Shown piece after piece: positions 1,144 to 44,351 of a stretch of DNA of 64,000 bases (positions within the stretch are counted from its first letter, which is position 1; every line of letters begins with the position of its first letter). The position numbers and the translations under genes were made by a program. The notes under the pieces were generated by a model that ran no database searches, had not been told where the DNA came from, and worked only from the letters and a program-made list of their open reading frames with translations. The stretch spans positions 55,728-119,727 of the forward strand of contig CAZBZO010000003.1 of NCBI GenBank assembly GCA_964496425.1, read 5' to 3'. Source of the DNA: an uncultured Candidatus Saccharibacteria bacterium (GTDB lineage: Bacteria; Patescibacteriota; Minisyncoccia; Phycocordibacterales; UBA9973).

Positions 1144-4100
1144 TTAGGCCTTGAGCAGGATTTTGATTGTGAGGGATTCGATTTTTATGCTTTCTCCATC
1201 ATTTTCTGCAAATTCCACATCCTTGGCAAGTACTGTTTTTTTGAAGTCATCCATGAATAGTTCGATAAGCCCAAGAGCATTGTCTGAAATTGTGATTGAA
1301 ATAACATCCTTAGGAGTTAGCCCTTGTTTTTTGCGAAGATCTTGCACAGCGCGAACGAGCTCGCGATACTGACCTTCCTGCTTGAGTTCAGGGGTAATTT
1401 CTGTATTGATTTGTAATTCTGTACCACTTAATACTTCTTTAACATTCAGTTCATCTTTAATAAGACCATGGAATTGTTCCTCAAGAACAGGGGTACTTGG
1501 AATTGTAATACTCTGTAATGTTTGTCGCACTGGGATACCTGCCTTCTGGCGAAGCGCATTTCCCTGCTGGCAAAAACCAATTACAATTTCCATTTTTGTA
1601 ATAAGTTCTTCATTTTCCGCCTTTTTCATTTCTGGCCATTTTGCCAAATGCACACTCTCCTGGTCTCCTTCAATCTTTAATTTCTGCCACAAGTCTTCCG
1701 CAAAAAATGGTGCGAATGGTGCCATGACTTTTGCAAGATTTTTCAAAACAAAATACAAAGTCATTTTTGCCTCTTCCCCGTCCCTCGTCTCGCCGGAGCC
1801 TTGCGCGGAGGCGGATTTCAGTCGATCTCGTGAACGACGCAGATACCAGGTGGAAAGATCGTCAATAAATTCCCGTATGGCTCGCGCTGGCTCGAGCACT
1901 TTATATTCATCAAGTGAGCTCGTTGTAAGTGCGATAAGCTGGTCGAGTCGTGCCACAATCCACGCATCCAAAACGTTCTCGTGCAACTCGTAACTTGTAA
2001 CTCGTAACTCCAAACTTTTATCTCTGTATAGTTCATAAAATGCCACGACGTTGTCGAGTAAGGTGAAAATCTTTCCCTGAAGTTCCTTCACAGTTTTTTC
2101 ATCAAAGTTTTTTGATTCACCTGGCTGATTGACCGAATACATCCACATGCGAAGCGTATCGACACCGTATTTGTCGATCATAGCCCATGGCTCAATAATG
2201 TTACCTTGCGACTTGCTCATTTTTTTACCTTTGTCGTCGAGGATGTGGCCAAGACAAATCACATTCTTATACGCTTTGCCGCGACCAAGAAGCGTCCCAA
2301 CAGCATGCAGTGTGTAGAACCATCCACGTGTTTGGTCGATCGCTTCGCAAATATAGTCTGCCGGATATCCAGCGCCATCTACCCACTCCTTATTTTCGAA
2401 AGGATAATGATCCTGCGCGAGCGGCATCGCGCCACTATCAAACCAGACATCCATGACTTCTTTTACTCGACGATATTCCTTCTTCGTCACGCCGGAGCCA
2501 TCGGCAGAGGCGGGGCCGTCTTTCTCAAGCACTATCTCATCAATGTACGGCCTATGCGGATCAAATTCGTAGTTTTCATTGTGCGGGAGTGGAGCGAAAG
2601 AGAGCTCGCGGATTTCAGCGTTTAGTAAATCAGAATGTTCGTTATTCTTTTTTTCTAAATCCCTAAATGTAAATCCTGAAGCGACAAATTCGAGCGCTCG
2701 ACTCGATGCTGCATGACCGACAATGAGAATATTTTTATTCTGAAATTTTGATTCAATATCATAAATAAAATCTCCCTGCCGTTTTAGCACATCCGCAAAG
2801 CTTTCTCCCCCTGCCAATCTTTTTTCTGGAGAATACACATAATCGTGATTGTAATATTGTTTCACTGCCGAAAGTTCTTGACCTTCAAACTCATTACCGG
2901 GTTCAAGTTCTTGAAGCCGTGCATCATACATCACTTCATCCGAAGGAAAACCTAGTTTCTGACAAACAATTTCTGTACTTTGGCGGGCTCGCTCAAAGGG
3001 CGAAGAAAAGACAACATCAATCTTTTCCCCCAGTTTTGAAATGCTCTCCAAGACTTGTCCTTGTCCTTTTTCTGTCAAAACAGCGTGATGATGATATTCG
3101 TCGGTCCACATTTTACTTGTATTGTTACCCGCTTCTCCGTGCCGCATCACAAAATATTTATTGCCAGATTTCTTGGCATATTTTTTGAGCATGTCGTACG
3201 AATCCACGACCAATCGCTCTCCATCTTCAGCCACCCAAATCGGAAGCGGTGTACCCCAGTACCGCTCACGCGAAATCGCCCAGTCTTTGATGTCTTTCAA
3301 CCATTCACCAAAACGGCCTTGCTTGATGTAACTCGGCTCCCAATTAATTCCTTCGTTTGCTTGTATGAGCTCTTCACGAAGCGTGGACATGCCGATATAC
3401 CACGAATCTCGCGCGTAGTAGATAAGCGGTGTTTTACAACGCCAGCAATGCGGATATGAGTGCGTATAGAGTTCTTTTTTGAAAAATAAATTTTTTGCTG
3501 TGAGGTAGCGAATGATGTCGACGTCGAGCGTCGGTTTGCCGGCTTCATCTTTTTCTTTTACAAATCGTCCTTCGAATTCACCAGTGCCTTTTACAAATGT
3601 GCCGTCAGGATTGACCAGATGAAATTTCGGCAAGCCGACTTTGGTACCAAGCTCAAAGTCTTCTTGTCCATACATGACTGCCGTGTGCACAATACCGGTA
3701 CCGTCCGTCGTCGTCACGAAGTCTGCTGGATAGACTTTATATGCGTTTGCGAGTTTTGGATCACCGGCATCAAGCTCTTGTAAATATGGAAAAAGCGGTT
3801 CATATGAGAGGCCAATTAAATCTCTTCCTTTCATTTCCTTTTCCATTATTTTCTCTGAACCAATCTCCATCTTTTGGAAGAAATCTTTAGAAGCAATAAA
3901 TATATCGTCTGATATTTTAATAAGAGTAGGCTTTTCCGCATCAAAATCCTGGCGATAGTATTTAAAAGCTACATAATCAATATCTTCTCCGACCGCAAGT
4001 CCAACATTCCCAGGTAAAGTCCAAGGTGTTGTTGTCCACGCGAGCAAATAGGTATTTTCTTGTCCAACAATTTTAAATTTCGCAGTGATCGAGAGATCCT

Positions 4101-4758
4101 TATCATCTTGATAGCCTTGTGCAAGTTCGTGACTCGAAAGCGCTGTGCCACAGCGCGGACAGTAGGGCACGACTTTGTAATCTTTATAGAGCAATTTTCG
4201 CTCGTCCACTTTGGCGAGCACGTTCCAAAGCGATTCGATGTAATCGTTGTGATAGGTCACATATGGATGCTCTTCGTCCACCCAGTAGCCGATGCGCTTG
4301 GTAAAGTCTTGCCAGGCATCGACGTATTTCCAGACATTTTCGCGACATTTTTGATTGAAAGCGGCAATGCCGTACTCTTCAATTTCTTTTTTTGATTTGA
4401 GACCAAGCGTTTTCTCGACTTCAAGTTCTACCGGAAGTCCATGCGTATCCCAGCCACCCTTGCGACGCACATGAAAACCCTGCATAGTTTTGTAGCGTGG
4501 AATAATGTCTTTGAATGAGCGGGATTCGAGGTGGTGGATACCCGGCTTGCCGTTGGCAGTCGGCGGACCCTCATAAAAAACAAATTCCTTTCCGCCTTCA
4601 TTTTTGGCCACTGATTGTTCAAATATTTTTCCTTCTTCCCAAAACTCTAAAACGCTCTCTTCACGCTGCGCAAGTGGTGATTTGCTTGTCCCGTTAGAAG
4701 TAGGTTCTACTTGGGAACCGTTAGTTCTAACGGGATGATTTTTTTTATTTTCATCCAT
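1144..4758 (-). CDS. ileS: Isoleucine--tRNA ligase (type 2) carrying an inserted histidine-phosphatase (PGAM-like) domain
   Basis: 1204-aa ORF. Class I HIGH region PPTANGKPGIHH and KMSKS are present, together with the IleRS-specific YPHCWRCKTPLIY and WAISRERYWGTPLP motifs. Between the WAISRERYWG motif and DVWFDSG there is a roughly 270-aa segment, against about 80 aa in E. coli IleRS. The segment contains RHGEAGNN, SSPFERARQSTEI and IVGHAASSRAL, which are the hallmark motifs of the histidine phosphatase superfamily. Confidence 0.9.
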   Translation of the reverse strand: MDENKKNHPVRTNGSQVEPTSNGTSKSPLAQREESVLEFWEEGKIFEQSVAKNEGGKEFVFYEGPPTANGKPGIHHLESRSFKDIIPRYKTMQGFHVRRKGGWDTHGLPVELEVEKTLGLKSKKEIEEYGIAAFNQKCRENVWKYVDAWQDFTKRIGYWVDEEHPYVTYHNDYIESLWNVLAKVDERKLLYKDYKVVPYCPRCGTALSSHELAQGYQDDKDLSITAKFKIVGQENTYLLAWTTTPWTLPGNVGLAVGEDIDYVAFKYYRQDFDAEKPTLIKISDDIFIASKDFFQKMEIGSEKIMEKEMKGRDLIGLSYEPLFPYLQELDAGDPKLANAYKVYPADFVTTTDGTGIVHTAVMYGQEDFELGTKVGLPKFHLVNPDGTFVKGTGEFEGRFVKEKDEAGKPTLDVDIIRYLTAKNLFFKKELYTHSYPHCWRCKTPLIYYARDSWYIGMSTLREELIQANEGINWEPSYIKQGRFGEWLKDIKDWAISRERYWGTPLPIWVAEDGERLVVDSYDMLKKYAKKSGNKYFVMRHGEAGNNTSKMWTDEYHHHAVLTEKGQGQVLESISKLGEKIDVVFSSPFERARQSTEIVCQKLGFPSDEVMYDARLQELEPGNEFEGQELSAVKQYYNHDYVYSPEKRLAGGESFADVLKRQGDFIYDIESKFQNKNILIVGHAASSRALEFVASGFTFRDLEKKNNEHSDLLNAEIRELSFAPLPHNENYEFDPHRPYIDEIVLEKDGPASADGSGVTKKEYRRVKEVMDVWFDSGAMPLAQDHYPFENKEWVDGAGYPADYICEAIDQTRGWFYTLHAVGTLLGRGKAYKNVICLGHILDDKGKKMSKSQGNIIEPWAMIDKYGVDTLRMWMYSVNQPGESKNFDEKTVKELQGKIFTLLDNVVAFYELYRDKSLELRVTSYELHENVLDAWIVARLDQLIALTTSSLDEYKVLEPARAIREFIDDLSTWYLRRSRDRLKSASAQGSGETRDGEEAKMTLYFVLKNLAKVMAPFAPFFAEDLWQKLKIEGDQESVHLAKWPEMKKAENEELITKMEIVIGFCQQGNALRQKAGIPVRQTLQSITIPSTPVLEEQFHGLIKDELNVKEVLSGTELQINTEITPELKQEGQYRELVRAVQDLRKKQGLTPKDVISITISDNALGLIELFMDDFKKTVLAKDVEFAENDGESIKIESLTIKILLKA

Positions 4759-9098: not shown

Positions 9099-9521
9099 TT
9101 ATTTTCTTCCTGTGGAGCCAAATTGGCCCATACCGCGCGAAGAATCCGAAAGCTCGTCTACCTCTTCGAGCTCCACGATTTCTACTGGCATAATAAGAAG
9201 CTGAGCGACTTTGTCGCCTTTCTCCACCGCATAGGGCTGGTCTCCAAGATTCACCAGGTGCACATTGTATTCACCACGAAAGCCGGCATCAAAGGTACCA
9301 CCCATAGTGTGGAGTCCTGCTTTGGAAATACTACTTTTGTCTTTTACAAGCGCTGCATAACCTTCTGGAAATTCAAGCGCAAAGCCGCTCATAAAACGAT
9401 GGTGCTCGCCTGGCGGGATCACCACGTCTTCCATGGCGTACATATCGAGACCCACATCCCCTGGATGGGCGTAGCTCGGCATTTTCGTTTCAGAATATAA
9501 TTTTTTAATTTTGATTTTCAT
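9099..9521 (-). CDS. dut: dUTP diphosphatase
   Basis: 140 aa. PGDVGLDMYA, the HTMGGTFDAGFRGE motif and the C-terminal RGMGQFGSTG are conserved dUTPase motifs. Confidence 0.85.
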   Translation of the reverse strand: MKIKIKKLYSETKMPSYAHPGDVGLDMYAMEDVVIPPGEHHRFMSGFALEFPEGYAALVKDKSSISKAGLHTMGGTFDAGFRGEYNVHLVNLGDQPYAVEKGDKVAQLLIMPVEIVELEEVDELSDSSRGMGQFGSTGRK

Positions 9522-10005
9522 TGTTTAAAAAATAATTTGAATACATTCCAAAGTTTTTTAGAAATATGCTTGGATCTTTTTGATAAGCACTCAATAATTC
9601 TTCTGTGGTAAACCACCGTACTTCTTCGACTTCTTTCTTCTCGATTACAAGTAACGTATTCTTTGGTATCACGAGAGTAAACCATTGTACAAAATATTCG
9701 TGGGTAGTGGAACGACGCATCTTAGGCCCAAGTTTTGGTTTAATATTTTTTAACCCAATTTCTTCTTCTGCTTCTTTGATGATATTTGATTCATATGTTT
9801 CTCCTTCTTCGACTGTGCCTGCTACCGCTGGCCCCCACAGTCCAGGAAGTTTTCGTTTCAGATATGATCTTTGTGCAAGCAATATTTTGCCGGACGAATC
9901 AGTAATCCATAGGCCAGTCACACGCGTGATCTCTTTTTCGCCTCGTAGATCACGATCTTTATACTCTATGATTTCATCTTGTTCATTAACGATTGGAATT
10001 TTCAT
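9505..10005 (-). CDS. Nudix hydrolase
   Basis: GTVEEGETYESNIIKEAEEEIGL matches the Nudix box GX5EX7REUXEEXGU. It overlaps dut by 17 nt. Confidence 0.7.
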   Translation of the reverse strand: MKIPIVNEQDEIIEYKDRDLRGEKEITRVTGLWITDSSGKILLAQRSYLKRKLPGLWGPAVAGTVEEGETYESNIIKEAEEEIGLKNIKPKLGPKMRRSTTHEYFVQWFTLVIPKNTLLVIEKKEVEEVRWFTTEELLSAYQKDPSIFLKNFGMYSNYFLNNENQN

Positions 10006-10703
10006 TTGAATATCTTCTTTACTTTCTCGTAAATTTCTTCATGTATATCGTCTATCATGCGAAGTGCATTGTTGGGTGTACAGTCGATTTGAATATAATT
10101 CTTTTGTGTTTTCGAAAGCCAAAGCGCACTCTTACGAGAATTTTCCATATACGCAACATTGCCTTCCACAATATCTTTTTTCTTGCCAAGGTACGCCCGC
10201 TTGGTCTTTTTGTTGCGCTCTTTAATGAGATTTTTTATAAAGCTCATGGAAAGATTGAGGTAGAACACAGCTGCCGGACGCGGAATTTTGAATACTTCAT
10301 ATTCCATCTGATCGAGCCAGCGGATAAATTCTTGACGTTTCTTAGGGTTTCGGATTTTGCCGCCTTGATGGATTTGGTTCGCACTGGCATAACGATTGGC
10401 AAGTACGATATAGCCTTTTTTAAGCCATCCATTGATCTCTTCTTTGGATTCCCATCGATCAGCTGCATAGGCAAGCGAGGCGATTTTTGGATGAATCGTG
10501 ACCCAATTGTAGTAGCTTTCTGAAAGACACTCTCCGATGAATTTGCCAAAGAAGTTTTTGTAGTACTCGGGAAAGTCCACCACTTTCACTTTTTTGCCTT
10601 CTTTTAGGAGTCGCTTCCGCAAGAGCTCTACTTGAGTCGCCTTCCCGGAGCCATCCGTACCGTCTATGACAATGAGTTTGCCGCTTTTCATGCCCTTCAT
10701 CAT
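10002..10703 (-). CDS. tmk: Thymidylate (dTMP) kinase
   Basis: IVIDGTDGSGKATQVELLRKRL is the P-loop in dTMP kinase context. There is a 4-nt overlap with both neighbours. Confidence 0.8.
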   Translation of the reverse strand: MMKGMKSGKLIVIDGTDGSGKATQVELLRKRLLKEGKKVKVVDFPEYYKNFFGKFIGECLSESYYNWVTIHPKIASLAYAADRWESKEEINGWLKKGYIVLANRYASANQIHQGGKIRNPKKRQEFIRWLDQMEYEVFKIPRPAAVFYLNLSMSFIKNLIKERNKKTKRAYLGKKKDIVEGNVAYMENSRKSALWLSKTQKNYIQIDCTPNNALRMIDDIHEEIYEKVKKIFK

Positions 10704-11488
10704 AGCATACCGGTCTTTTCTCGAAGTTGCTTAAAATGTTTGAGGTAGGCGACGATTATGAAGCTGATGATGACCATGAGAAACCAGGAGCTAATCTTGT
10801 TGGCTGAAACTACATTCCACACATGGACTTGGTCCGGGTACTGCCAAGCTCCGAGAAATGTTGAAATGTTCTCTGCGATCCAGATAAAAAAAGCAATGAG
10901 AAGAAAAGAGATTCCGAGCGGCATACGGCGACGCTTCGTGGTGACAGTGAAGTAGACCTTTGTTTTCCAAAAAAATATAAATACGAGCGGAATAAGGAAA
11001 AGCCGAATATCAGGTAAGAAATGATTGGTAAAAAAGTTGAGGTAGATAAGTATTCCAAGTACAAAGCAACCGGTGTACGAATAGAGATGAGAGAGCTCAA
11101 GCTTGAAAATTTTCCAGGCTGCGACTATATAGCTTCCGATAGCTGCGTACATAAACCCGCTATAGAGTGGCACGGTCCAGATTTTGAAAAAAGCGTCTTC
11201 CGGATAGCTCCATGAACCGACAAAAGCGCTGGTCTTGTAGATCTCGAGCATGAGACCGATAATATGAAAAAGAAAAATAGTTTTGAGCTCATCTTTGGTT
11301 TCTAGTTTGAAGACATAGAGTAATACCTGGACGAGCACGCTGGCAAGAAAGAGAAAATCATAGCGCGCGAGCCCAAGCGTCGTAATGTATTGTGAGGTAA
11401 AGAGAAGCAGAAAAAATACTCCAGCAAAGAGCGCAGCTTGTGCCTGCTTTAAACCAAAAATGAGAAACTCTTTAGCGAAATTCTTCAT
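10700..11488 (-). CDS. Polytopic membrane protein of unknown function, embedded in the nucleotide operon
   Basis: 262 aa with about 8 hydrophobic helices and no recognisable motif. Its position suggests a transporter, possibly for a nucleoside or base. Confidence 0.45.
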   Translation of the reverse strand: MKNFAKEFLIFGLKQAQAALFAGVFFLLLFTSQYITTLGLARYDFLFLASVLVQVLLYVFKLETKDELKTIFLFHIIGLMLEIYKTSAFVGSWSYPEDAFFKIWTVPLYSGFMYAAIGSYIVAAWKIFKLELSHLYSYTGCFVLGILIYLNFFTNHFLPDIRLFLIPLVFIFFWKTKVYFTVTTKRRRMPLGISFLLIAFFIWIAENISTFLGAWQYPDQVHVWNVVSANKISSWFLMVIISFIIVAYLKHFKQLREKTGML

Positions 11489-11913
11489 TGAGATTCAATA
11501 TCAAAATAATTTCTTCCAGTTTTAAGTGCCTCAAAATATGAAGGGATGGTTGAAAAAAGAGGAGTTGGTAATTGCTCAGGATCATACCAATCCCAACCTT
11601 CACATTTTTCTGGCTCTCGTACTTCCGGCTCACCACTTTTCCAATCTGCCACCATGGCAATATCAACATAATGCTTACCGTAATTTGTCATATTCAACAA
11701 CCGTAGAAATTTAATATTTGTGACCTCAATTCCAGTTTCTTCTTTTACTTCCCGGCATACACACTCGCTGATTGATTCCATAAATTCCAAATGTCCTCCT
11801 GGCCATGCATACTCGCCTTCTCCATGAGAACTTTTACGCTTCCCCATTAACACCTTCCCATCCTTAAAAATCATCACCCCTACCCCTACTTTTGGCCGTT
11901 GTTCGTCTGTCAT
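11485..11913 (-). CDS. Nudix hydrolase
   Basis: GGHLEFMESISECVCREVKEETGIE is a Nudix box. Confidence 0.7.
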   Translation of the reverse strand: MTDEQRPKVGVGVMIFKDGKVLMGKRKSSHGEGEYAWPGGHLEFMESISECVCREVKEETGIEVTNIKFLRLLNMTNYGKHYVDIAMVADWKSGEPEVREPEKCEGWDWYDPEQLPTPLFSTIPSYFEALKTGRNYFDIESQ

Positions 11914-11916
11914 AAA

Positions 11917-12462
11917 TTAATTAGGTTTAATCTTTTGAATTAATCCTTCTTCAAGCAAACGAACCGCCGCCGGTGGTACATATTCTTTCCATTTATTGTT
12001 CCCCAAGACAATCATGCTGCGGATTTCGCTACCGCTAATTATTTTCTTTACTTCTCGTGATCTCACATCAAGACCAAGCTTTGCTAAAACTTTTTCTTTC
12101 TTTTTTCCCCATTCATCATATATATCGATAAAATAAATTGCGTCCGGAGGAGCATAATATTTTATCTTCTCTGGAAAATTAATCGGGAAAGGCACAATTT
12201 CAAATCTATCTCTGGAAATTCCTATATCAATCAAGGTGTCGCGAATCATCTCCAAGCGTTCCCAGTAAGAAAAAGGATTATTGATCTCTTCGGAACGATG
12301 AGGATTGGCATCATCAAAGCGGGTAAGGTCAGGATCTGGATTACATATACCGATTATAACTTTTTCGCATTCTTCAAATGCATGTAAAATCAAATCGTCC
12401 ACGTGGCCGTTATGAAGTATCTGAAATCGCCCATGCACTACCCCTATTTTTTCTTTTTTCAT
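11917..12462 (-). CDS. NadM/archaeal-type NMN adenylyltransferase-like nucleotidyltransferase
   Basis: IGVVHGRFQILHNGHVDDLI matches the (H/T)xGH nucleotidyltransferase motif in the GRFQPxHxGH form typical of NadM-type NMNATs. The start is taken at MKKEKIGVV, which abuts the DNPH1-like gene. Confidence 0.6.
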   Translation of the reverse strand: MKKEKIGVVHGRFQILHNGHVDDLILHAFEECEKVIIGICNPDPDLTRFDDANPHRSEEINNPFSYWERLEMIRDTLIDIGISRDRFEIVPFPINFPEKIKYYAPPDAIYFIDIYDEWGKKKEKVLAKLGLDVRSREVKKIISGSEIRSMIVLGNNKWKEYVPPAAVRLLEEGLIQKIKPN

Positions 12463-12463
12463 A

Positions 12464-12874
12464 CTAAAATTTATGGATGCTAATAAATTCCTCAAGAATT
12501 CGAGGTACGTCTTCAATGGTTTGATATTCACGCACGGTCACATGTGGACTCCCTGCAATCATGTTTGAGAGTTTGCGATCAGAGCCTGAACGGTAAAGAC
12601 ATAGTATGGGAATCTTGAGATGCTCTGCAGAAGCGATCTCATACCCAACCCCGAGACTTGGCGTCGTCACTTCAGCAATGAGTATATCAGTGGATTTGAG
12701 TTCTTCTCTATCTCTTTCATAGCTTTCTTGATCAGACATTATCTTGGTCTCTTCGCGAGGTCGGAGATGAAAAGAAATCACTTCACCATATTTTTGAATT
12801 TCACGAATGATCTCTTGGTAAAGCTCCTTATCATCACTTCCTCCTCGCACTGATCCAGAAAAATAGATTTTCAT
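12464..12874 (-). CDS. DNPH1/Rcl-like 2'-deoxynucleoside 5'-phosphate N-hydrolase (nucleoside 2-deoxyribosyltransferase fold)
   Basis: MKIYFSGSVRGG...ILIAEVTTPSLGVGYEIASA...IPILCLYRSGSDRKLSNMIAG aligns closely with mammalian Rcl/DNPH1 (YFCGSIRGG...VVVAEVTQPSLGVGYELG...RILCLFRPQSGRVLSAMIRG), including the catalytic Glu of PSLGVGYE. Confidence 0.7.
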   Translation of the reverse strand: MKIYFSGSVRGGSDDKELYQEIIREIQKYGEVISFHLRPREETKIMSDQESYERDREELKSTDILIAEVTTPSLGVGYEIASAEHLKIPILCLYRSGSDRKLSNMIAGSPHVTVREYQTIEDVPRILEEFISIHKF

Positions 12875-12876: not shown

Positions 12877-13527
12877 TTATGCGGTCGGCCGTTTAATGAT
12901 TAATTCTTCTTCCGGATTTTCTCGCTCGAGATTGTTTACAATTTTTTGAGCTACAAAATCAGAATCCATATACTCTTCAAAATTCGCTGGCTTATTTTCA
13001 CCATACAAATCCGTACGCGTACCTCCAGGATATACAGAAAAAATATTAACACCAGATCCTTCGTTCTCGGCTTTTAAGGCTTGTACATAGCCACGAATCG
13101 CCCATTTGCTGGCTGCATAAATCTTTGCATTCTTAGCACGAGTGGCATCAAGTGCCGCGCTTGAGAGAATATTTACTACTACACCACTATTGTTCGTTTT
13201 CATATATCCGAGCGCTGTTCGACAGCCAAATATAGTACCAAAAAGATTCGTGTCAATAATTTCATGCACTTTAATCATATCAATCAATGCTTCTTCAGGA
13301 GAAAATGTGTGGAACACGCCAGCATTGTTAATCCACACATCAATGCGGCCAAATTCTGCCACAGTTCTTTTTGCCAACGCTTGTACTTCCGTTTCCTTGC
13401 GCACATCGGTATCACTGCGGTCTGAAGCCACGACCTGTGCGCCTTTGTTTGTAAATAAAACAGCTAAGGATTTTCCTATCCCTTTTGACGCTCCAGTAAT
13501 AACAATGACTTTATCTTTGAGGATCAT
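12877..13527 (-). CDS. Short-chain dehydrogenase/reductase (SDR)
   Basis: VIVITGASKGIGKSLA is a TGxxxGxG Rossmann motif, and NAG plus YAASKWAIRGY gives the YxxxK catalytic motif. Confidence 0.75.
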   Translation of the reverse strand: MILKDKVIVITGASKGIGKSLAVLFTNKGAQVVASDRSDTDVRKETEVQALAKRTVAEFGRIDVWINNAGVFHTFSPEEALIDMIKVHEIIDTNLFGTIFGCRTALGYMKTNNSGVVVNILSSAALDATRAKNAKIYAASKWAIRGYVQALKAENEGSGVNIFSVYPGGTRTDLYGENKPANFEEYMDSDFVAQKIVNNLERENPEEELIIKRPTA

Positions 13528-13530: not shown

Positions 13531-13974
13531 TTATTTTGAATGAGTGCTTTCACTAGCAAGTTTTTCCAGAAGTTTATCTCTAAATTTCATAACCATCATC
13601 TCTTGAGTAATAACTGAAGGATCTGAAGAATCAGTGAGCTCGTTGCCATAGTGTTCATGCATAAGCCAAGTACGAATGTATTTCTCATCTCTTTCATCTG
13701 GCATCGCTTCTGCAATCGCAATAAGTTTCTTCACAAAATTATTTTGCCGCATCGCGCGAAGTTTATCTAAATTCTTTTCAAGGCCTGCTGCAGTATCGAT
13801 TTTCAAAAGTGGTTTATCTTCAAAACCCTTTTGTACCATCTTTTGTTGGGTAATACCTTTTGTAAGCGGAACACCATTAAGGACAATAATAGGCTCCCCT
13901 TTTCTAATGATGTAAGTATCACGGGGTTTTTCGGAACTCCCAAAGTTATTCATATTTTCACTAAATCGAATCAT
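13531..13974 (-). CDS. Hypothetical protein
   Basis: 147 aa with a charged, non-repetitive composition and no recognised motif. It is translationally coupled within the operon. Confidence 0.4.
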   Translation of the reverse strand: MIRFSENMNNFGSSEKPRDTYIIRKGEPIIVLNGVPLTKGITQQKMVQKGFEDKPLLKIDTAAGLEKNLDKLRAMRQNNFVKKLIAIAEAMPDERDEKYIRTWLMHEHYGNELTDSSDPSVITQEMMVMKFRDKLLEKLASESTHSK

Positions 13975-13979: not shown

Positions 13980-15236
13980 TTACACAAACTTCTCCGGTAT
14001 CGGATGACTTTCCGCCAGCGCTTTGATTTCAGCGCGAATGCGGTCTTTTACTCCGCTATCATCTTTATTACGCAAAGTTTCGATCAAGAGCTCCGCCACG
14101 CGAGCACAATCTGCTTCCATAAATCCTCGTGTGGTAATAGCTGGCGTGCCGAAGCGAATACCTGACGGATCAAGTGGCTTACGAGTGTCACCCGCAATAG
14201 AGTTCATATTGAGCGTAATGCCGACTTCATCGAGCACCGTCTGGGCTTCTTTGCCGGTCACACCGAGCGAGCCGAAAACATCAGCCAAGATCAAGTGATT
14301 GTCCGTGCCGCCGCCGATCATGCGCACGCCTTCTCGCTTGAGGACTTCTTCCATAGCTTTAGCGTTTTTGAGTATTTGCTTGGTATACGCTTGGTACGCT
14401 GGAGTCATAGCTTCACCAAAGGCCACGGCTTTAGCGGCAATGGTATGCATGTGCGGACCGCCTTGAATACCAGGAAAAATGGATTTGTCGATCTTCTTGG
14501 CAAGCTCTTCACTCTCACGGGTGAGTATCATGCCCCCACGTGGACCACGAAGTGTTTTGTGGGTCGTCGTGGTGATGATATCAAAACCATAATCAAATGG
14601 ATTCTCCAGTGCCTTACCTGCAATGAGTCCAGCGATATGCGCCATATCAGCCATGGTGATCGCCCCGACTTCGCGAGCAATCTCCACAAACTTTTTATAA
14701 TCGAGCGTGCGTGAGTACGCAGAAAATCCAGCGAGAATTATTTTTGGCTTCTTCTCGATAGCGACTTGTCGGAGGGCCTCGTAGTCAATCTCCCCTGTTT
14801 CCGGATCTTTCATTTTGTAAGTCACGAAGTTGTAAATCTTCGCCGGCAAAGTCATTGGATGACCATGGGTAAGGTGCCCACCATGAGAGAGATCCATACC
14901 AAGCACGGTATCGCCAGGAGAAAGAAGTGCGGCGTAGACTGCCAAGTTGGCCGGGGCACCGGAGTGCGGCTGGACATTGGCGTAGGCGCAATTAAAAAGT
15001 TTTTTCGCTCGCTCGATAGCAAGTGTCTCCACGATGTCAGTAAAATCCTGTCCGCCATAATAGCGCCGCCCTGGATACCCTTCGGAATATTTGTTGGTAA
15101 ACACCGAGCCGTTGGCTTCAAGGACGGCGCGCGATACGTAGTTTTCAGATGGAATGAGCTCAAGCCCTTCCCGCTCGCGCTTCTCTTCGCCTTCGATAGC
15201 CGCTAATACTTCAGGATCTTGTTGTAAATAATGCAT
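13980..15236 (-). CDS. glyA: Serine hydroxymethyltransferase
   Basis: 418 aa. The PLP-lysine region TTTTHKTLRGPRGG and the general SHMT signature are present. Confidence 0.95.
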   Translation of the reverse strand: MHYLQQDPEVLAAIEGEEKREREGLELIPSENYVSRAVLEANGSVFTNKYSEGYPGRRYYGGQDFTDIVETLAIERAKKLFNCAYANVQPHSGAPANLAVYAALLSPGDTVLGMDLSHGGHLTHGHPMTLPAKIYNFVTYKMKDPETGEIDYEALRQVAIEKKPKIILAGFSAYSRTLDYKKFVEIAREVGAITMADMAHIAGLIAGKALENPFDYGFDIITTTTHKTLRGPRGGMILTRESEELAKKIDKSIFPGIQGGPHMHTIAAKAVAFGEAMTPAYQAYTKQILKNAKAMEEVLKREGVRMIGGGTDNHLILADVFGSLGVTGKEAQTVLDEVGITLNMNSIAGDTRKPLDPSGIRFGTPAITTRGFMEADCARVAELLIETLRNKDDSGVKDRIRAEIKALAESHPIPEKFV

Positions 15237-15255: not shown

Positions 15256-15765
15256 TTAATCAAACTGATGCCCAACAATATTCTGTGGATCTTTAATATT
15301 GAAAAGTTTCTCGCTATTTTTAAGTAAAGTAGCGTCTGAGATACCTGCTTTCAACATTTTATCCCAACATGGCTTGCAACACCACCAATGTCCCCATAAA
15401 TACAGCCGAGCTCCTCGCATATCAGCTTTATGCTTTTCTCCATCACGCACGGCGCGAAACTCTCCATGGTTTTTATGAGATGCACAGCCAGGGCAAAGAA
15501 AATAAAGTTTTCCAGATGGAACACCGAACAATCGTCGTATGCAATATTTTTTATGAAGTGCGACGAGCCTTGGATCTCGAAGTGCTGATTGATTGGCTCC
15601 TTTGGCGACAACTTTCCCGTCTTTAACGATGATCGCCCCCGTGGAGATGCTTGCATCAGTCGAATACCTCCGCGCTTCTTCTTTGGCTTCTGCCATATAA
15701 GGATCAGAGATTTCCACATAGGCAATTTTTCCACTTTGTGGCATATAGGGATATTGGATTTCCAT
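15256..15765 (-). CDS. dCMP deaminase-like zinc deaminase (CDA fold) with an extra Cys-rich insertion
   Basis: ISTGAIIVKDGKVVAKGANQ...HGEFRAV...GARLYLWGHWWCCKPCWDKMLKAGI aligns with the dCMP deaminase H(A/C)E...PCxxC...AGI zinc site. An extra CIRRLFGVPSGKLYFLCPGC block is inserted. Confidence 0.6.
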   Translation of the reverse strand: MEIQYPYMPQSGKIAYVEISDPYMAEAKEEARRYSTDASISTGAIIVKDGKVVAKGANQSALRDPRLVALHKKYCIRRLFGVPSGKLYFLCPGCASHKNHGEFRAVRDGEKHKADMRGARLYLWGHWWCCKPCWDKMLKAGISDATLLKNSEKLFNIKDPQNIVGHQFD

Positions 15766-15804: not shown

Positions 15805-16656
15805 ATGACAAAGTTCGACCAGCTCTACCAGGATCTTCTGAGAAATATTATGGAAACTGGTATTGCAGAGCACAACGAACGCACGGGCCATGAGACCAAA
15901 GCTTTGCCGGGAGTCTCGTTTTCGACCGATATTGAGCGTGACGGTCTCCCTATTCTTACGCTTCGCAAAATCCCCGTCAAAAGTTTCATCGCTGAACAAA
16001 TCTGGTTTATATCTGGTGCCAAACGTCCAGATGAATTTTTAAATAAACACACTCAAATCTGGAACGACTTTATGGAAACTGATGGCACGATTGCGGCCGC
16101 ATACGGCTATCGGTGGCGACACCATTTCGGACGCGATCAACTCGGACAACTCATCGCTCACTTAAAAGCTGAGCCACATTCCCGCCAAGGCGTCATCATC
16201 ACCTGGGATCCAGCCGACGACGGACTCTATGGGGATGGGCTTACCGCCACATACAAAAAAAATGCACCGTGTCCGTTTGCATTTACCGTCAATATTATCG
16301 GCGGACGACTTCACATGATGAATATCGTGAGATCAAATGATGCCATACTCGGTCTGCCTTTTGATGTCGCTGGATTTTCAATCCTGCAATGTATTCTTGC
16401 TCAAAAGCTCGGCGTGACGCCAGGTATCTATACCCACGTCATTGCCAACGCGCATGTCTATGACAATCACTATGAAGCGGCGAAGGAAATCGTTGCACGA
16501 GACCATGATCATACGCCAATCATATTGCACTTGCCAGAACATTCATTTGAACGCGCAGAAAAAAAAGATGATGCGCTCCTTGAAGAAATACAAAATGATA
16601 TCGCCTCGCAATATCAACCACTTGAATCAATTAAAGGACTGAAGATAGTACTGTAA
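15805..16656 (+). CDS. Thymidylate synthase-family enzyme with Asp at the Asn177-equivalent position, predicted dCMP-specific methylase or hydroxymethylase
   Basis: The region after the catalytic Cys aligns with E. coli ThyA without gaps. APCPFAFTVNIIGGRLHMMNIVRSNDAILGLPFDVAGF lines up with [38 protein letters not shown], and ANAHVYDNH with GDTHLYSNH. R21, R166, S167 and D169 are conserved. N177 is replaced by D (codon 16363-16365) and H147 by P. Confidence 0.8.
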   Translation: MTKFDQLYQDLLRNIMETGIAEHNERTGHETKALPGVSFSTDIERDGLPILTLRKIPVKSFIAEQIWFISGAKRPDEFLNKHTQIWNDFMETDGTIAAAYGYRWRHHFGRDQLGQLIAHLKAEPHSRQGVIITWDPADDGLYGDGLTATYKKNAPCPFAFTVNIIGGRLHMMNIVRSNDAILGLPFDVAGFSILQCILAQKLGVTPGIYTHVIANAHVYDNHYEAAKEIVARDHDHTPIILHLPEHSFERAEKKDDALLEEIQNDIASQYQPLESIKGLKIVL

Positions 16657-16668
16657 GTACATTCTTAT

Positions 16669-17079
16669 ATGAATACTCGCCACGTCGTTGTGGGTCTCGT
16701 CACCCACAAAAAGAAGGTATTGATATTGAAACGATCTGAAAATGATCCGACATACCCTGATATGTGGGAATTTATTTCCTGGGTCTCCAGAGAAAAAGCC
16801 ACACCGAAAATAGATGCGGTAAAACGGCACATCTGCCATGCCACAGGACTTTCTTTATCGGAGCCATATGCAGGGAAAAAATTTCGGGTAGCAAGCGTGC
16901 ACAGCACGTTGTATATGCACCCGTTTATTTTTCAGGCCGATAGTGATGAGGTCACGCTACTGCCAGAAAAACACGAGAGTTATAGATGGGTGCGGCCGCA
17001 AGATATAGGTAAATATGCCTTAGTGCAAGATTTGGACAACTGCCTCAAACTTCTTAGTATTTTGCTTGAACACTGGTAA
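16669..17079 (+). CDS. Nudix-fold protein with a degenerate Nudix box
   Basis: 136 aa. The N-terminal VVVGLVTHKKKVLILKR and overall length are Nudix-like, but the box region REKATPKIDAVKRHICHATGL lacks the REUXEE glutamates. Confidence 0.4.
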   Translation: MNTRHVVVGLVTHKKKVLILKRSENDPTYPDMWEFISWVSREKATPKIDAVKRHICHATGLSLSEPYAGKKFRVASVHSTLYMHPFIFQADSDEVTLLPEKHESYRWVRPQDIGKYALVQDLDNCLKLLSILLEHW

Positions 17080-17088
17080 ACTAGAGGT

Positions 17089-17607
17089 ATGATACTTTCT
17101 TTTATTGCCGCTATCGGCAAAAACCACGAGCTCGGCTTCGGCAATCAGTTGCCGTGGCATTTGCCGGACGATCTGAAGCGTTTCAAAGACATCACCCGCG
17201 GACACACAGTGCTGATGGGCCGAAAAACGTATGATTCCATCGGGCGACCACTCCCCGACCGACGTAACATAATCATCACTCGGGATACGACCTTTGTGGC
17301 GCCGGGTATTGAAGTCGCACATTCACTTGATGAAGCACTCCGCCTCGCCTCGCTTGATAATGGAAAACGATTTGAAGAGGTACCAGAAGAGCCTGAAGTA
17401 TTTGTGATCGGCGGAGGACAAGTCTTCACCGAGGCTCTCCCTCGCGCCCAAAAAATGTATCTCTCTCATGTCGAGACTGCTCTCCCCGCTGATTCTTTTT
17501 TCCCAAAATTTGATCTAGGGGAGTGGAAAATCCTAAGCGAAGAATTTCATCCAAAAGACGAAAAACATCTCTACGATTTTACCTTTAAACAATATGAACG
17601 AAAATAA
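17089..17607 (+). CDS. folA: Dihydrofolate reductase
   Basis: MILSFIAAIGKNHELGFGNQLPWHLPDDLKRFKDITRGHTVLMGRKTYDSIG is the canonical DHFR N-terminus, and the VIGGGQVF motif is present. Confidence 0.85.
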   Translation: MILSFIAAIGKNHELGFGNQLPWHLPDDLKRFKDITRGHTVLMGRKTYDSIGRPLPDRRNIIITRDTTFVAPGIEVAHSLDEALRLASLDNGKRFEEVPEEPEVFVIGGGQVFTEALPRAQKMYLSHVETALPADSFFPKFDLGEWKILSEEFHPKDEKHLYDFTFKQYERK

Positions 17608-17610: not shown

Positions 17611-18195
17611 TCAGAGTAGAGCGTTTGGGAAATCTGATTGAAACTGAGATGCTGTGGTAAATAAGAGTGCACGCATACCAAGTCCAGCTGCAGCAGCAAT
17701 ATTTGCCGGGTTGTCATCCGTAAAAAGAATTTCATTTGCCATAAAGCCAGTTTTCTCAATAAAATATTTAAAAAAGTTTGGATCAGGCTTGATCATGTGG
17801 ACATCTCCTGAGATAGCAGTAGTATCAAAGAGAGCGAGTTTCTCTTTTAAAACATTTTCAATTAAACTTCGAGGGGCATTCGTGAGCAGGCCAATCTGGT
17901 ATTTCTTTTTTAATTCTAAAATAAACGTTAACAATTCTTCGTTTAAAATAGCATACTCATACGAACGCTGCTTGAGTTCACTAGAATCTTGATTAACTTC
18001 TGCCGCGAGTCTGCCGACAAATGCATCCTCCGAAACATCTCCAATATCGAGATCATGCACAACAATTTTCATCCATTCATTATATTTATTTTCGTCTCCG
18101 GAAAATACATCGCGCAAAAAGCCACCATACATTGGTGGACACAACACCCCAAAGAAATCGAATGCAATCATTTTAACCATAGTGCTATGGATCAA
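17611..18195 (-). CDS. HAD-superfamily hydrolase, 5'-nucleotidase-like
   Basis: The N-terminal MIAFDFFGVL is HAD motif I-like. GLLTNAP and a C-terminal DD... motif are present. It resembles the small HAD nucleotidase/phosphatase family. Confidence 0.5.
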   Translation of the reverse strand: MIHSTMVKMIAFDFFGVLCPPMYGGFLRDVFSGDENKYNEWMKIVVHDLDIGDVSEDAFVGRLAAEVNQDSSELKQRSYEYAILNEELLTFILELKKKYQIGLLTNAPRSLIENVLKEKLALFDTTAISGDVHMIKPDPNFFKYFIEKTGFMANEILFTDDNPANIAAAAGLGMRALLFTTASQFQSDFPNALL

Positions 18196-18514
18196 GCGGG
18201 GTACGCATGCGGATAAATATGTCTTTACCGTCCGGTGATTTCTCCTTTTTGTATTTTCTATTTTTATTTATTTCAATCTTGCGCACCAATTCTTTCTCGA
18301 GGTCGTAGCCAAGTGTTTCGCACATACCAAGAAGAAAAATAGCAACGTCGGCGAATTCTTCCGCTACTCCAGGCTGGTTTTTACTGTATTTAGAAAATGC
18401 CTCGGAAAGCTCTTCGTGTGCGCGACAGAATTCAAAGGCAATATCACTGGTATTAAAGCCCTTTTCGAGCTTATTACGCATGACTTCCGCCTGTAAAACT
18501 TTAAGATCAATCAT
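18185..18514 (-). CDS. MazG-like all-alpha nucleoside triphosphate pyrophosphohydrolase
   Basis: 109 aa. AHEELSEAFSKY...GVAEEFADVAIFLLGM carries the EExxE...E..D metal-binding pattern of small MazG/dCTPase-like NTP-PPases. Confidence 0.55.
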   Translation of the reverse strand: MIDLKVLQAEVMRNKLEKGFNTSDIAFEFCRAHEELSEAFSKYSKNQPGVAEEFADVAIFLLGMCETLGYDLEKELVRKIEINKNRKYKKEKSPDGKDIFIRMRTPLDP

Positions 18515-18551
18515 AGGTACAGTATAAAGTATTATGTATAAAGTATAAAGC

Positions 18552-19832
18552 CTAAAAACTCTTCCGATTCTTCAAAACATATTCCTCAGAATACCAACGC
18601 TTGCGAAGCTCGCCAATCAAATAGAAAGAGCCAGTGACCAAAATCAGATCACCCTTGGTAGCATTTTTCATCGCTTTATCCAGGGCCTGACCAGGATCAA
18701 GAAACATCTCAAGTGTCATAGTTTTCTTTTTGTATTTTTTTGAAAGCTGATAGAGTTCTCGTGGATTGGCCGCCTTGTGACCAGACCCGAGCTGAGTCAG
18801 ATAGACATGGTCTGCGAGAGACAAAAGTGGAGCAAGCGTATGAAGCGGATTTTTGCCTTGCTTCATACCGAAGACGAGGTGGAGTTTCTTGTATTTTAAT
18901 TTTTTTACATTCTCAACGGTTGTTAAAATCTTGGCTCTATTGTGGGCACCATCGAGCACAACAAGTGGAGACTTTTGCATCGTCTCAAATCGCCCCGGCA
19001 ACCGACACTTCTCTATCGCCTCCTTTACTTTTATTTCCGGTAAACCAATGTAGGCACAGATAGCTTCTACAAGCATTCGGTTGGCTTTCTTATACTCCTG
19101 AGTGACAGGGAGCGGCATATACTTGGCCCCGACTTTTTTCGCCAAGGTCACCAAATAGCTCCGGATCGCAGGACGAGTTTCGGTTGTAAAAAATGCACTT
19201 CCCCTTTTTAGAATACCAGCTTTGTTCCAAGCAATATTTTTGAGCGTGGGCCCGAGAAGTTCAATGTGGTCATAATCGATATTGGTGATCGCTGTCACTT
19301 GAGGCTTTGCGATAATATTTGTCGAGTCATACCTGCCACCACAGCCGACTTCAAGTACAACATGCTCGCATTTCATATCGCGAAAGTAGAGGAGCGCAAT
19401 CGCAGTCTTAAGCTCGGTATATGACGGGCCGCCATACGGCGCGTCACGATAGGCTTTATCAACCAACGGTTTGCATTGCTCCATATAGGCTGCAAAAGCC
19501 CCCGGTGCAATATAGGTATCATTTACTTTTATATTTTCAATCGCGGAGGAAACATAGGGCGACGTATAGAGGCCAACTTTTTTGCCGCTTCTCCATAAGG
19601 CTTCCGCTACTGTAGCTGAAATCGTACCTTTGCCTGACGTACCGGTAATATGAATATATTTCATTCCCCGCTCCGGATGACCGAGAAGATCTAGAAAATA
19701 TTCCATCCGCTTGAGATAGAACGTCGTGTGTTGGCGATCACGCATATAATCGCGGTTGGCGACATTTGCCAGACTCGTGAGATACTCGTGAGCCTTGTGA
19801 TATGCTGTGAAATTTTTATCCTTTACGTTCAT
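18552..19832 (-). CDS. folC: Folylpolyglutamate synthase / dihydrofolate synthase (Mur ligase family)
   Basis: IHITGTSGKGTISATVAEAL is the Mur-ligase P-loop, and the FolC-type central and C-terminal domains are present. Confidence 0.8.
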   Translation of the reverse strand: MNVKDKNFTAYHKAHEYLTSLANVANRDYMRDRQHTTFYLKRMEYFLDLLGHPERGMKYIHITGTSGKGTISATVAEALWRSGKKVGLYTSPYVSSAIENIKVNDTYIAPGAFAAYMEQCKPLVDKAYRDAPYGGPSYTELKTAIALLYFRDMKCEHVVLEVGCGGRYDSTNIIAKPQVTAITNIDYDHIELLGPTLKNIAWNKAGILKRGSAFFTTETRPAIRSYLVTLAKKVGAKYMPLPVTQEYKKANRMLVEAICAYIGLPEIKVKEAIEKCRLPGRFETMQKSPLVVLDGAHNRAKILTTVENVKKLKYKKLHLVFGMKQGKNPLHTLAPLLSLADHVYLTQLGSGHKAANPRELYQLSKKYKKKTMTLEMFLDPGQALDKAMKNATKGDLILVTGSFYLIGELRKRWYSEEYVLKNRKSF

Positions 19833-37005: not shown

Positions 37006-38004
37006 TTACTTATCCTCCTCTTTCTTTGTGTGCCCGTGGGCATCGACTTCGTATGCAGTGTTCTGGGCTTCAAAGAAGTTCACAAGTTCATAGACATCGG
37101 TGGCGCCGGCCATCCATTTTGCTGGATTGGTAGCATTGTAATGCTTCGGCATACCGAGCTCTTCCAAGCGGCGATCTGCTACGTATTTCACATATTGATT
37201 TACATAGTCAGCATTGAGGCCTAAAATGCCGTTTGGAAAGAGGTCTTTGTTGTAGGCGACTTCAAGATCGACACCTTCCACAACAATCGTCCGGATTTCT
37301 TCAGCAAATTCTGGCGTCAACAAATCAGGATTCTCTTCAAGAATATGCATGATGAGATTCATGCCAAACTTCAAGTGGAGTGACTCGTCGCGAATAACCC
37401 AGTTGATCATACTCGCAAAGTTTCGAAGTTTATTGCGCTGGCGGAACGACAAGACCACCATGAAGCCCGAATAGAACCAAACACCTTCCATGACAATATT
37501 GGTTGCTACGAGATTGCGAATAAAATCTTTTTTCCCTTGTGTCGTTTCAATATCTAGCGTGTCTTCGGTCATGCGGCGCAAATATTTTGTGATGAAGGCC
37601 TCTTTTTTTACCATTGAATCAGTCTGCGTGTGCACTTCATATATCGTATCGCGACCCATAGGAAATGTTTCAAGCACGTACTCAAAGGCTACACAGTGGT
37701 TGGCCTCTTCCCACATTTGCTTCGCAAGATACAAATGGCATTCAGGAGACTTAATATACGGATAGACACCGAGCGCAAGAGAGCGGTTCACAATAAGCTC
37801 TGCCGGATTGAAAAATGACATGAGGAATTTTACGGCATGACGTTCATCTTCCGTCATATCGTTCCAGTCTTTCAAATCTTCCCCGAGCGGGATCTCATGA
37901 GGGAACCATGTGTTGCGCACAGCTTGGTTGTAGAGTTCATAGGCCCACTTATAGTGCATGGGATGCAGGGATGTATCTTCTGGTGTAGCTTTTCCGATCA
38001 ACAT
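37006..38004 (-). CDS. nrdB: Ribonucleoside-diphosphate reductase beta (small) subunit, class I
   Basis: Ferritin-like di-iron sites (EANHCVAFEYVLETF, RDESLHLKFG) and the tyrosyl-radical region. It is adjacent to nrdA. Confidence 0.9.
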   Translation of the reverse strand: MLIGKATPEDTSLHPMHYKWAYELYNQAVRNTWFPHEIPLGEDLKDWNDMTEDERHAVKFLMSFFNPAELIVNRSLALGVYPYIKSPECHLYLAKQMWEEANHCVAFEYVLETFPMGRDTIYEVHTQTDSMVKKEAFITKYLRRMTEDTLDIETTQGKKDFIRNLVATNIVMEGVWFYSGFMVVLSFRQRNKLRNFASMINWVIRDESLHLKFGMNLIMHILEENPDLLTPEFAEEIRTIVVEGVDLEVAYNKDLFPNGILGLNADYVNQYVKYVADRRLEELGMPKHYNATNPAKWMAGATDVYELVNFFEAQNTAYEVDAHGHTKKEEDK

Positions 38005-38094
38005 AATAGTAGTTAGTAGTTAGTAGTAAATAGTTAGTAGGACGACATAGTTAGTGTATTTTTCTACTTACTACTAACTACTTTCTACTAACTG
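38005..38094. repeat. Inverted repeat of TAGTTAGTAG-type units (long imperfect hairpin) in the nrdA-nrdB intergenic spacer
   Basis: AGTTAGTAGTAAATAGTTAGTAG (left arm) pairs with CTACTAACTACTTTCTACTAACT (right arm), giving an approximately 23-bp imperfect stem around a roughly 25-nt loop. The arms are built from direct repeats of (T)AGTTAGTAG. Confidence 0.6.
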
Positions 38095-40659: not shown

Positions 40660-40952
40660 AGATGTTTTTTAAATAATGTTACGTGAGTAATAATAGATGC
40701 AAAAATAAATTGATATGGGGAATCAATTATAACTTAAAAAAACAAAGAAGGATACACGGGCGACATCAGTAGGAGTAATGCGGGTACAATTGTAGCATCG
40801 GAAAAATCACTCGCAAGTGGGGATAACCCTACGATATATAGGTTTTTTGATGAGTGGTAAACGAGCTTACGGTAATTGATTTATTTACCGCAAAAAAACA
40901 TGGATTAGACTCGGAGTCTATACTATGAGGAGAAAAATCGGCTTAGAAAAAT

Positions 40953-44331: not shown

Positions 44332-44351
44332 AGTATTTCCAACTCCCAAAG

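Follow-up and report, generated by a model that had tools for sequence, protein, structure and literature searches.

We examined a 64,000-nucleotide stretch of the genome of an uncultured Candidatus Saccharibacteria bacterium (contig CAZBZO010000003.1, positions 55,728 to 119,727; hereafter, at its full length, the window), with attention to one small gene, the open reading frame (ORF) at 12464..12874 on the minus strand, which runs from an ATG at 12872-12874 to a TAG at 12464-12466 and encodes 136 amino acids. This gene is the fifth in a run of 11 minus-strand genes that extends from 15765 down to 9099, with ten junctions at which the genes overlap by as much as 17 nt or stand as much as 19 nt apart, and with a gene content that is identical on independent contigs; the run is a superoperon for dTTP supply and nucleotide house-cleaning. 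A preliminary description of the locus, made from the sequence, had likened the product to mammalian DNPH1 (Rcl), an N-glycosidase of 2'-deoxynucleoside 5'-monophosphates (dNMPs), and had proposed that it could form a functional couple with the adjoining NadM-like nucleotidyltransferase. We find that the gene is a bacterial relative of human DNPH1 and that its product represents a rare variant of that family, whereas the couple finds no backing in comparative genomics.

The three motifs on which the likeness to DNPH1 had been based are all present in the ORF: IYFSGSVRGG at residues 3-12, AEVTTPSLGVGYE at residues 67-79 and ILCLYR...LSNMIAG at residues 90-108. In a phmmer comparison of the protein with all PDB sequences, rat Rcl was matched at 6.8e-24 (87.6 bits) and human DNPH1 at 4.5e-22, while other branches of the nucleoside 2'-deoxyribosyltransferase (NDT) superfamily were marginal (BlsM, 1.8e-3 and 21.7 bits; MilB, 0.012 and 18.9 bits) and the classical NDT structure 7m5h reached only E = 0.025 (18.0 bits). 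Over 109 aligned positions the protein is 45% identical to the rat fragment and 42% identical to the human one. An AlphaFold2 model of the monomer, computed with 31 homologues as input, has a mean predicted local distance difference test score (pLDDT) of 91.2 and a predicted TM-score (pTM) of 0.87, and adopts the five-stranded Rossmann-like alpha/beta core of the DNPH1 fold; all 50 of its 50 best Foldseek matches in the PDB are DNPH1/Rcl structures, with query-normalised TM-scores of 0.74-0.85. Together with the catalytic triad and both phosphate-binding serines, which are kept, these scores bear out the assignment to the DNPH1/Rcl type and confirm a relationship beyond chance resemblance. Compared with the NDT, DNPH1 and MilB/BlsM subfamilies, the protein did not fall among the classical NDTs, the one placement that the preliminary description had named as speaking against its proposal.

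The assignment itself is not new, some members of the family having already been named '2'-deoxynucleoside 5'-phosphate N-hydrolase' by annotation pipelines. Most homologues, though, are called 'nucleoside 2-deoxyribosyltransferase' at NCBI and JGI, a name that matches the title of Pfam family PF05014, to which the window protein belongs with E = 5e-9, above the cut-off of that family. PF05014 embraces DNPH1 as well, hence the generic name.

We then compared the active site with those of the mammalian enzymes, taking residue roles from work on human and rat DNPH1 (PMC10603095, PMC3834327) and aligning 120 homologues with the rat and human fragments. The catalytic triad of human Y24, D80 (the acid) and E104 (the nucleophile) is kept as Y4, D55 and E79, which are invariant across the 120 homologues. 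S98, which binds the 5'-phosphate, corresponds to S73 of the window protein (rat Ser87), and S128', which reaches the phosphate from the partner subunit, to S103 (rat Ser117'); the GSxRGG loop, which binds phosphate through its backbone, is G7-S8-V9-R10-G11-G12. The residues that contact the base, R30 and D73 (joined by a salt bridge) and H56, are matched by R10, D48 and H36, and rat Met119', a ribose contact, by M105. Across the window protein and its 116 close homologues, little or no variation is seen in the triad, in the two serines that bind the phosphate or in M105. Solved DNPH1 homologues are dimers in which a helical extension completes the active site of the neighbouring subunit, and residues of this extension (L102, S103, M105 and G108) are likewise conserved in the homologue alignment.

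Where the window protein departs from mammalian DNPH1, it does so largely around the base and the hydrolytic water. Human E55, which activates the water that frees the covalent deoxyribose-5-phosphate-Glu104 intermediate, and whose replacement in E55Q and E55A traps that intermediate (PMC10603095), is changed to F35. The LTEHV element to which E55 and T54 belong is thus only partly preserved, reading ISFHL in the window protein, with H36 present, Glu replaced by F35 and T54 by S34. The hydrophobic sandwich that human I29 and I76 make around the base is not retained: I29 gives way conservatively to V9, but S51 occupies the I76 site, where 116 of 116 close homologues have Ile or Val. W83, whose role is not defined, is replaced by E58. 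Compared with mammalian DNPH1, the protein has a lid ('shielding') loop that is shorter by about five residues, and it lacks the eukaryotic N- and C-terminal tails.

These changes occur together in a very small set of proteins. Glu is lacking at the E55 site in just four of the 120 best homologues, the window protein (Phe) and its nearest relatives P0002, P0003 and P0006 (Tyr); the remaining 116 all have it, as do the rat and human enzymes, and all 116 keep the LTEH motif together with the Ile sandwich. The same four proteins carry Ser for Ile76, Val for Ile29, Ser for Thr54 and Glu or Lys for Trp83, a site that is Trp in 112 of the 116 others, and the combination of Phe/Tyr, Ser and Glu/Lys is found in no other close homologue. 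Their lid loops span 11-13 residues, whereas 107 of the 116 have loops of 14-15. At least four contigs, assembled independently of one another, carry the same sequence, so F35 is not a sequencing error. When a profile of the four variant proteins was run exhaustively with HMMER against 1.84 billion cluster representatives, it returned 2,475 members at E <= 1e-3, with 895 cluster representatives at E <= 1e-10; among the best 150 representatives the E55 site is Glu in 120, Asp in 8 and another residue in 22. None of these 150 has Phe or Tyr at that site or Ser at the I76 site, so that no further sequence of the variant type came to light among them, although clustering at 50% may hide the Phe/Tyr subclade beneath an E-type representative. 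The window protein, then, belongs to a rare variant of the DNPH1 family, whose second catalytic step and base preference may differ from those of the human enzyme. At the loci of P0006 (L007) and P0002 (L093), the Tyr-variant gene directly follows TauE-SHMT, SHMT being serine hydroxymethyltransferase, and on its 3' side lie Nudix clusters and a gene for a CYTH-domain (triphosphate tunnel) protein; a CYTH gene also follows SHMT in the Paceibacterota locus L077, considered below.

The genes around the DNPH1-like ORF bear largely on deoxynucleotide supply. The run opens with a dCMP/cytidine deaminase-family protein recognized by Pfam (15256..15765), followed by SHMT (13980..15236), a 147-amino-acid orphan (13531..13974) that has no Pfam, NCBIfam, PHROGs or PADLOC match and is not found in related loci, and a short-chain dehydrogenase/reductase (SDR; 12877..13527), which is separated from the DNPH1-like gene by a 2-nt spacer and stands at the same position in some Paceibacterota relatives. 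Downstream come the NadM-like nucleotidyltransferase of the cytidylyltransferase superfamily (11917..12462; 181 amino acids, with GRFQxxHxGH and SGSEIR motifs), a Nudix hydrolase of the NUDX1/NUDT15 type (11485..11913; AtNUDX1, 5e-32; human NUDT15, 1.4e-20) that is likely a (d)NTP diphosphatase, and then, by Pfam, a DUF817 membrane protein not seen in related loci (10700..11488), thymidylate kinase (Tmk; 10002..10703) and a second Nudix hydrolase (9505..10005); a dUTPase (9099..9521) closes the run. All of these lie on the minus strand. A divergent plus-strand unit (15805..17607) encodes thymidylate synthase (ThyA; 15805-16656), a third Nudix protein (16669-17079) and dihydrofolate reductase (17089-17607), and beyond it a minus-strand block (17611..19832) holds a HAD phosphatase (17611-18195), a small MazG-like gene (between 18195 and 18552) and a FolC-like Mur ligase (18552-19832). 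Predicted promoters and terminators were no more numerous in the operon than in shuffled sequence. A near-consensus sigma-70-like site (TTGACA, 16-nt spacer, TATATT; 11 of 12 positions matching) lies on the minus strand at 13229-13256, inside the SDR gene and roughly 355 nt before the start codon of the DNPH1-like gene, but sites of this kind are no commoner in the region than in shuffled sequence. No tRNA and no Rfam match was found in the window.

Relatives of the DNPH1-like gene are widespread. With one genome taken per species, at least 589 of the first 600 pattern matches proved to encode a relative; they belong to Patescibacteria, Bacteroidota, Balneolia, Acidobacteriota, Gemmatimonadota, Chloroflexota, Ignavibacteria, Gammaproteobacteria, Acidimicrobiia and several archaeal groups. 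The prokaryotic DNPH1-like proteins that retain the Glu (E-type; COG3613, 'RCL') are about 46-55% identical to the window protein and share its length and architecture. We compared all 16 operon proteins by tblastn with the best 80 species-representative loci, and found Tmk within 3 kb of the DNPH1-like gene in 10 of the 80, dUTPase in 9 and SHMT in 8, all of them in Patescibacteria. Gene orders in relatives include SHMT-SDR-DNPH1-Tmk, SHMT-DNPH1-Nudix... and DNPH1-Nudix-Tmk, and the E-type genes of Paceibacterota occupy the same operon position as the window gene, between SHMT/SDR and Nudix/Tmk. Among immediate neighbours classified by Pfam (72 upstream, 73 downstream), Tmk, SDR, Nudix, SHMT and ThyA recur, with no family in more than three loci per side. 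No neighbour is universal across phyla, and only some of the Patescibacteria show the thymidylate link.

Fusions point to similar partners. Of the 150 best representatives from the exhaustive search, 19 plainly exceed the length of one domain, and scanning them with Pfam revealed fusions of DNPH1 to Tmk (Tmk-DNPH1, P0248), to Nudix on either side (Nudix-DNPH1, P0252; DNPH1-Nudix, P0312), to a cytidine/dCMP deaminase (DNPH1-deaminase, P0323) and to NTPase_I-T, the ITP/XTP house-cleaning family PF01931 (DNPH1-NTPase_I-T, P0388), besides combinations with a GNAT acetyltransferase (P0254 and P0353), DUF4269 (P0250) and DUF1801 (DUF1801 first, P0282) and a tandem DNPH1 protein (P0241). In function, the fusion partners belong to classes already represented next to the gene in operons; when operons and fusions are considered together, SHMT, Tmk, dUTPase, Nudix, ThyA and dCMP deaminase are the partners that recur.

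The NadM-like neighbour presents a different picture. The spacing of 1 nt that the preliminary description reported between the two genes is correct, with the NadM-like ATG at 12460-12462, the spacer at 12463 and the DNPH1-like stop at 12464-12466, although a program-made list of ORFs starts the NadM-like gene at an upstream GTG instead (204 amino acids). Such spacing is not distinctive, because every junction in the 11-gene run measures 19 nt or less. The NadM-like protein matches Pfam PF01467 (2.5e-7) and aligns end to end with the nicotinamide mononucleotide (NMN) adenylyltransferase (NMNAT) of M. jannaschii (2.3e-7), relative to which it has an insert of about 13 residues after the first strand-helix unit; it falls well below the cut-offs of the NCBIfam models PRK01153 (55 against 127 bits) and TIGR01527 (42.5 against 181 bits). 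With NadM and NadM-Nudix proteins it shares the GRFQxxHxGH and SGxEIR motifs and the presence of a Nudix gene next to it. Its sequence thus suggests a NadM-like but divergent enzyme of uncertain substrate. About 150 homologues of 180-195 amino acids (P0122-P0240 among them) come from Saccharibacteria, gut Firmicutes, Asgard archaea and Deltaproteobacteria, and none reaches the cut-offs of the NMNAT models; of the three homologue loci examined (among L089-L092), two, both from Firmicutes, lie amid Nudix, MazG and HAD genes and the other amid unrelated genes.

In none of the 80 species-representative DNPH1-like loci is there a NadM-like gene within 8 kb, nor is there one nearby in any of the eight closest syntenic loci; reciprocally, no DNPH1-like gene was found at the loci of the three NadM-like homologues examined, and none of the 19 multi-domain DNPH1-family members has a cytidylyltransferase-like (NadM) fusion by Pfam. 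The closest syntenic relative, L077, comes from a Paceibacterota metagenome-assembled genome (MAG) whose SHMT, Tmk and ArgRS are 84%, 75% and 62% identical to those of the window. Synteny, together with SHMT identities of 81-84% to named MAGs, places the window in the Patescibacteria/Paceibacterota. In L077 the DNPH1-like gene is followed, across a 1-nt gap, by a 61%-identical orthologue of the window Nudix gene at 11485..11913 and then by Tmk. As no NadM-like gene interrupts this DNPH1-Nudix junction, the NadM-like gene is a lineage-specific insertion; it arrived recently and is not a partner of the DNPH1-like gene, and DUF817 and the 147-amino-acid orphan are likewise insertions in the lineage of the window. 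Two further ideas about this pair of neighbours were rejected. A split NadM-Nudix enzyme does not fit, the Nudix protein being of the NUDX1/NUDT15 type, unlike the ADP-ribose pyrophosphatase domain of NadM-Nudix, and being the older partner of the DNPH1-like gene, as in L077. Reading the DNPH1-like protein as an NMN nucleosidase fails too, since the Tyr that reportedly excludes ribonucleotides does not vary in the homologue alignment.

Taken with the conserved active site, the operon leads us to propose that the DNPH1-like protein is probably a dNMP N-glycosidase, encoded within a dTTP-supply operon, whose task is to clean or prune the pool of pyrimidine dNMPs; we infer the chemistry from solved homologues, and the substrate and physiological role from context. 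The enzyme would bind a 2'-deoxynucleoside 5'-monophosphate, holding its 5'-phosphate through the GSxRGG loop, S73 and the S103 of the partner subunit. E79, aided by Y4 and D55, would attack C1' and displace the base, whose departure D55 and H36 would assist, to form a covalent deoxyribose-5-phosphate-enzyme intermediate that is later resolved to free deoxyribose 5-phosphate. How this resolution might proceed with Phe in place of Glu admits several answers: D55 could act as the classical general base; another acid, such as E57 or E58, one helical turn past D55, could do so; hydrolysis could simply be slow; or the sugar phosphate could be transferred to a base acceptor, as in the phage enzyme DmtZ (PMC12884076). 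The paired exchanges of Ile for Ser and of Glu for Phe/Tyr could allow an aromatic ring from the lid helix to stack on the base, changing base preference.

In its pathway, such an enzyme would destroy unwanted dNMPs of the pyrimidine branch before Tmk phosphorylates them into the dNTP pool. The best candidate substrates would be pyrimidine dNMPs outside the canonical set, for instance 5-hydroxymethyl-dUMP, or dUMP in excess, which could arise from the action of dCMP deaminase on modified dCMPs, from Nudix or dUTPase activity on non-canonical dNTPs, or from scavenged DNA. In mammals, 5-hydroxymethyl-dUMP arises from the action of dCMP deaminase (DCTD), upstream of DNPH1, and the window gene is itself co-encoded with a dCMP deaminase, though, unlike mammalian DNPH1, in a bacterial thymidylate operon. 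Mammalian DNPH1 removes 5-hydroxymethyl-dUMP (PMC10603095), and the bacterial operon would follow the same logic as this DCTD-to-DNPH1 route. The suggestion in the preliminary description that modified dNMPs are removed remains viable, on the strength of the thymidylate and house-cleaning context rather than of NadM. Several observations weigh against this proposal. F35 replaces a Glu whose mutation in the human enzyme traps the intermediate, and the window copy could be a poor hydrolase; with S51 at a base-sandwich Ile site, the substrate preference of the human enzyme cannot be carried over; no neighbour is conserved outside a subset of Patescibacteria, and the thymidylate link may fail for the family as a whole; some of the fused proteins could be artefacts of metagenome gene calling; and the literature searched held no activity measurement for any prokaryotic DNPH1 member.

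How far other readings account for the same observations differs from case to case. That the protein is a classical NDT acting on nucleosides, as most database names would have it, agrees with its PF05014 match and with the NCBI and JGI names of many homologues, but we regard this as highly improbable given 87.6 bits to Rcl against 18.0 to the NDT structure, best fold matches that are all DNPH1, and Ser at both DNPH1 5'-phosphate positions (S73 and S103). In NDTs, the ligands of the 5'-OH are acidic or amide residues at the positions of rat Rcl Ser87 and Ser117', an equivalence adopted from published work (PMC12884076). Scarcely more credible is a DNPH1-NadM couple, in which release of the base would be followed by re-activation of a nucleotide-like product through adenylylation: the two genes do share an operon with a 1-nt spacer, and both families can be found where Nudix, MazG and HAD genes abound, yet comparative genomics largely refutes it, through the adjacency missing from 80 of 80 related and 8 of 8 closest syntenic loci, the lack of a DNPH1-like gene at the three NadM-like homologue loci, the absence of a NadM fusion in the 19 multi-domain proteins, the NadM-like gene being seen, by comparison with L077, as inserted in the DNPH1-Nudix junction, and the tight spacing that is general in the operon. 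The chemistry might also be the same and its purpose nutritional rather than the policing of modified nucleotides: the breakdown of scavenged dNMPs would furnish free bases to salvage and, with deoxyribose 5-phosphate, a source of carbon. In favour of this, Patescibacteria rely on salvage. The window further encodes an HD-domain protein with a weak match to YfbR-like 5'-deoxynucleotidases, a genomics paper on SAR11 lists bacterial rcl as a putative glycosidase that degrades purine dNMPs (PMC12636525), and rat Rcl was first assayed on dGMP (PMC3834327). We nonetheless hold a nutritional purpose to be rather unlikely: the recurrent partners (SHMT, Tmk, dUTPase, Nudix and deaminase) are biosynthetic or sanitising, not catabolic, and no deoxyribose-phosphate aldolase is found among the roughly 46 annotated ORFs of the window, about ten long ORFs past 49.8 kb being unscanned.

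The Glu-less active site raises a further alternative, that of a natural phosphodeoxyribosyl transferase, which would keep its deoxyribose-5-phosphate (dR5P) intermediate and pass it to an incoming base, swapping the bases of dNMPs; a scavenged dNMP could thereby be converted into one that is needed, much as phage DmtZ does for the Z base. Phe or Tyr at the E55 site is restricted to the window protein and P0002, P0003 and P0006, against Glu in 116 others and in both mammalian enzymes; the human E55Q and E55A enzymes trap the intermediate (PMC10603095); a natural dAMP hydrolase/dR5P transferase, DmtZ, belongs to the same superfamily (PMC12884076); and the base pocket is altered in step, with Ile replaced by Ser, Trp by Glu/Lys and the lid loop shortened. 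However, about 20% of the more distant representatives also lack Glu (having Asp, Lys, Ala or others), so that Glu is no universal requirement; the catalytic Asp, which serves as the classical general base, is retained; the Tyr side chain of the three relatives could still place a water; and no Pro occurs at residues 31-35 just before H36, P39 lying after it, which may bear on the water-excluding Pro reported as conserved in transferases. We therefore rate a transferase as improbable, and give the same slight weight to the broader idea that the variant is either a cellular dNMP:base phosphodeoxyribosyl transferase with suppressed hydrolysis of its intermediate or a sanitiser re-tuned to another modified base.

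Other nucleotide-acting enzymes of the superfamily help to locate the window protein. DmtZ, from Z-genome phages (PMC12884076), was modelled on Rcl and takes a dNMP substrate; its uncharged residues leave room for the 5'-phosphate, and its gene adjoins one for a dUTPase-like protein, a likeness to the window operon. DmtZ differs in having Asn in the triad, where the window protein keeps Asp, in its water-excluding Pro and in its specificity for dAMP and Z; it is, moreover, a phage enzyme, whereas the window protein has no PHROG match and its family is almost absent from viral contigs, among which we found one partial match only. As there is no PADLOC match either, a phage or defence origin of the window gene is unsupported. 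MilB and BlsM, which are N-glycosidases of CMP and hydroxymethyl-CMP from nucleoside-antibiotic pathways, share the fold, the Glu nucleophile and the hydrolysis of nucleoside monophosphates. MilB, however, has Glu where DNPH1 and the window protein (H36) have His, and binds the phosphate through Arg rather than through a second Ser (S103 in the window protein). The window protein also keeps the Tyr reported to exclude ribonucleotides and shows marginal similarity to BlsM and MilB.

Elsewhere in the window, two minus-strand segments (37006-41612 and 47886-48593) encode the small and large subunits of a class I ribonucleotide reductase (the large one with an ATP-cone), the HD-domain protein mentioned above and an endonuclease V; given the reductase genes, the organism would make deoxynucleotides by reduction besides any salvage. 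A 1204-amino-acid class I aminoacyl-tRNA synthetase at 1144-4758 (minus strand), IleRS-like in its tRNA-synt_1, Anticodon_1 and C-terminal DUF5915 domains, has an unusual architecture, with a complete histidine-phosphatase domain (PF00300, E = 2e-23) inside its catalytic region at residues 536-701. A free-standing protein of the same histidine-phosphatase family (PF00300, E = 9e-29) is encoded at 43702-44349, also on the minus strand.

DNPH1 came to prominence in 2021-2023 as the human remover of 5-hydroxymethyl-dUMP and as a drug target for sensitisation to PARP inhibitors. Close orthologues are common in bacteria and archaea, and the literature searched contained no biochemical study of a prokaryotic one; what we describe is a variant of this widespread, experimentally neglected enzyme family in an informative operon. 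Its embedding among thymidylate genes, the pattern of fusions and the Glu-less variant are new, and they offer a concrete and testable proposal for the role of a gene that commonly goes under the wrong name of nucleoside deoxyribosyltransferase. The F35 variant constitutes a natural experiment on the part that Glu55 is proposed to play in the second step of catalysis. Should the variant prove to be a transferase, a salvage-dependent Patescibacterium could re-base scavenged dNMPs beside its thymidylate machinery. For the family more broadly, the thymidylate operons, together with the fusions to Tmk, Nudix and deaminase domains, suggest that a sanitising route in which a deaminase is followed by a dNMP glycosidase is ancient.

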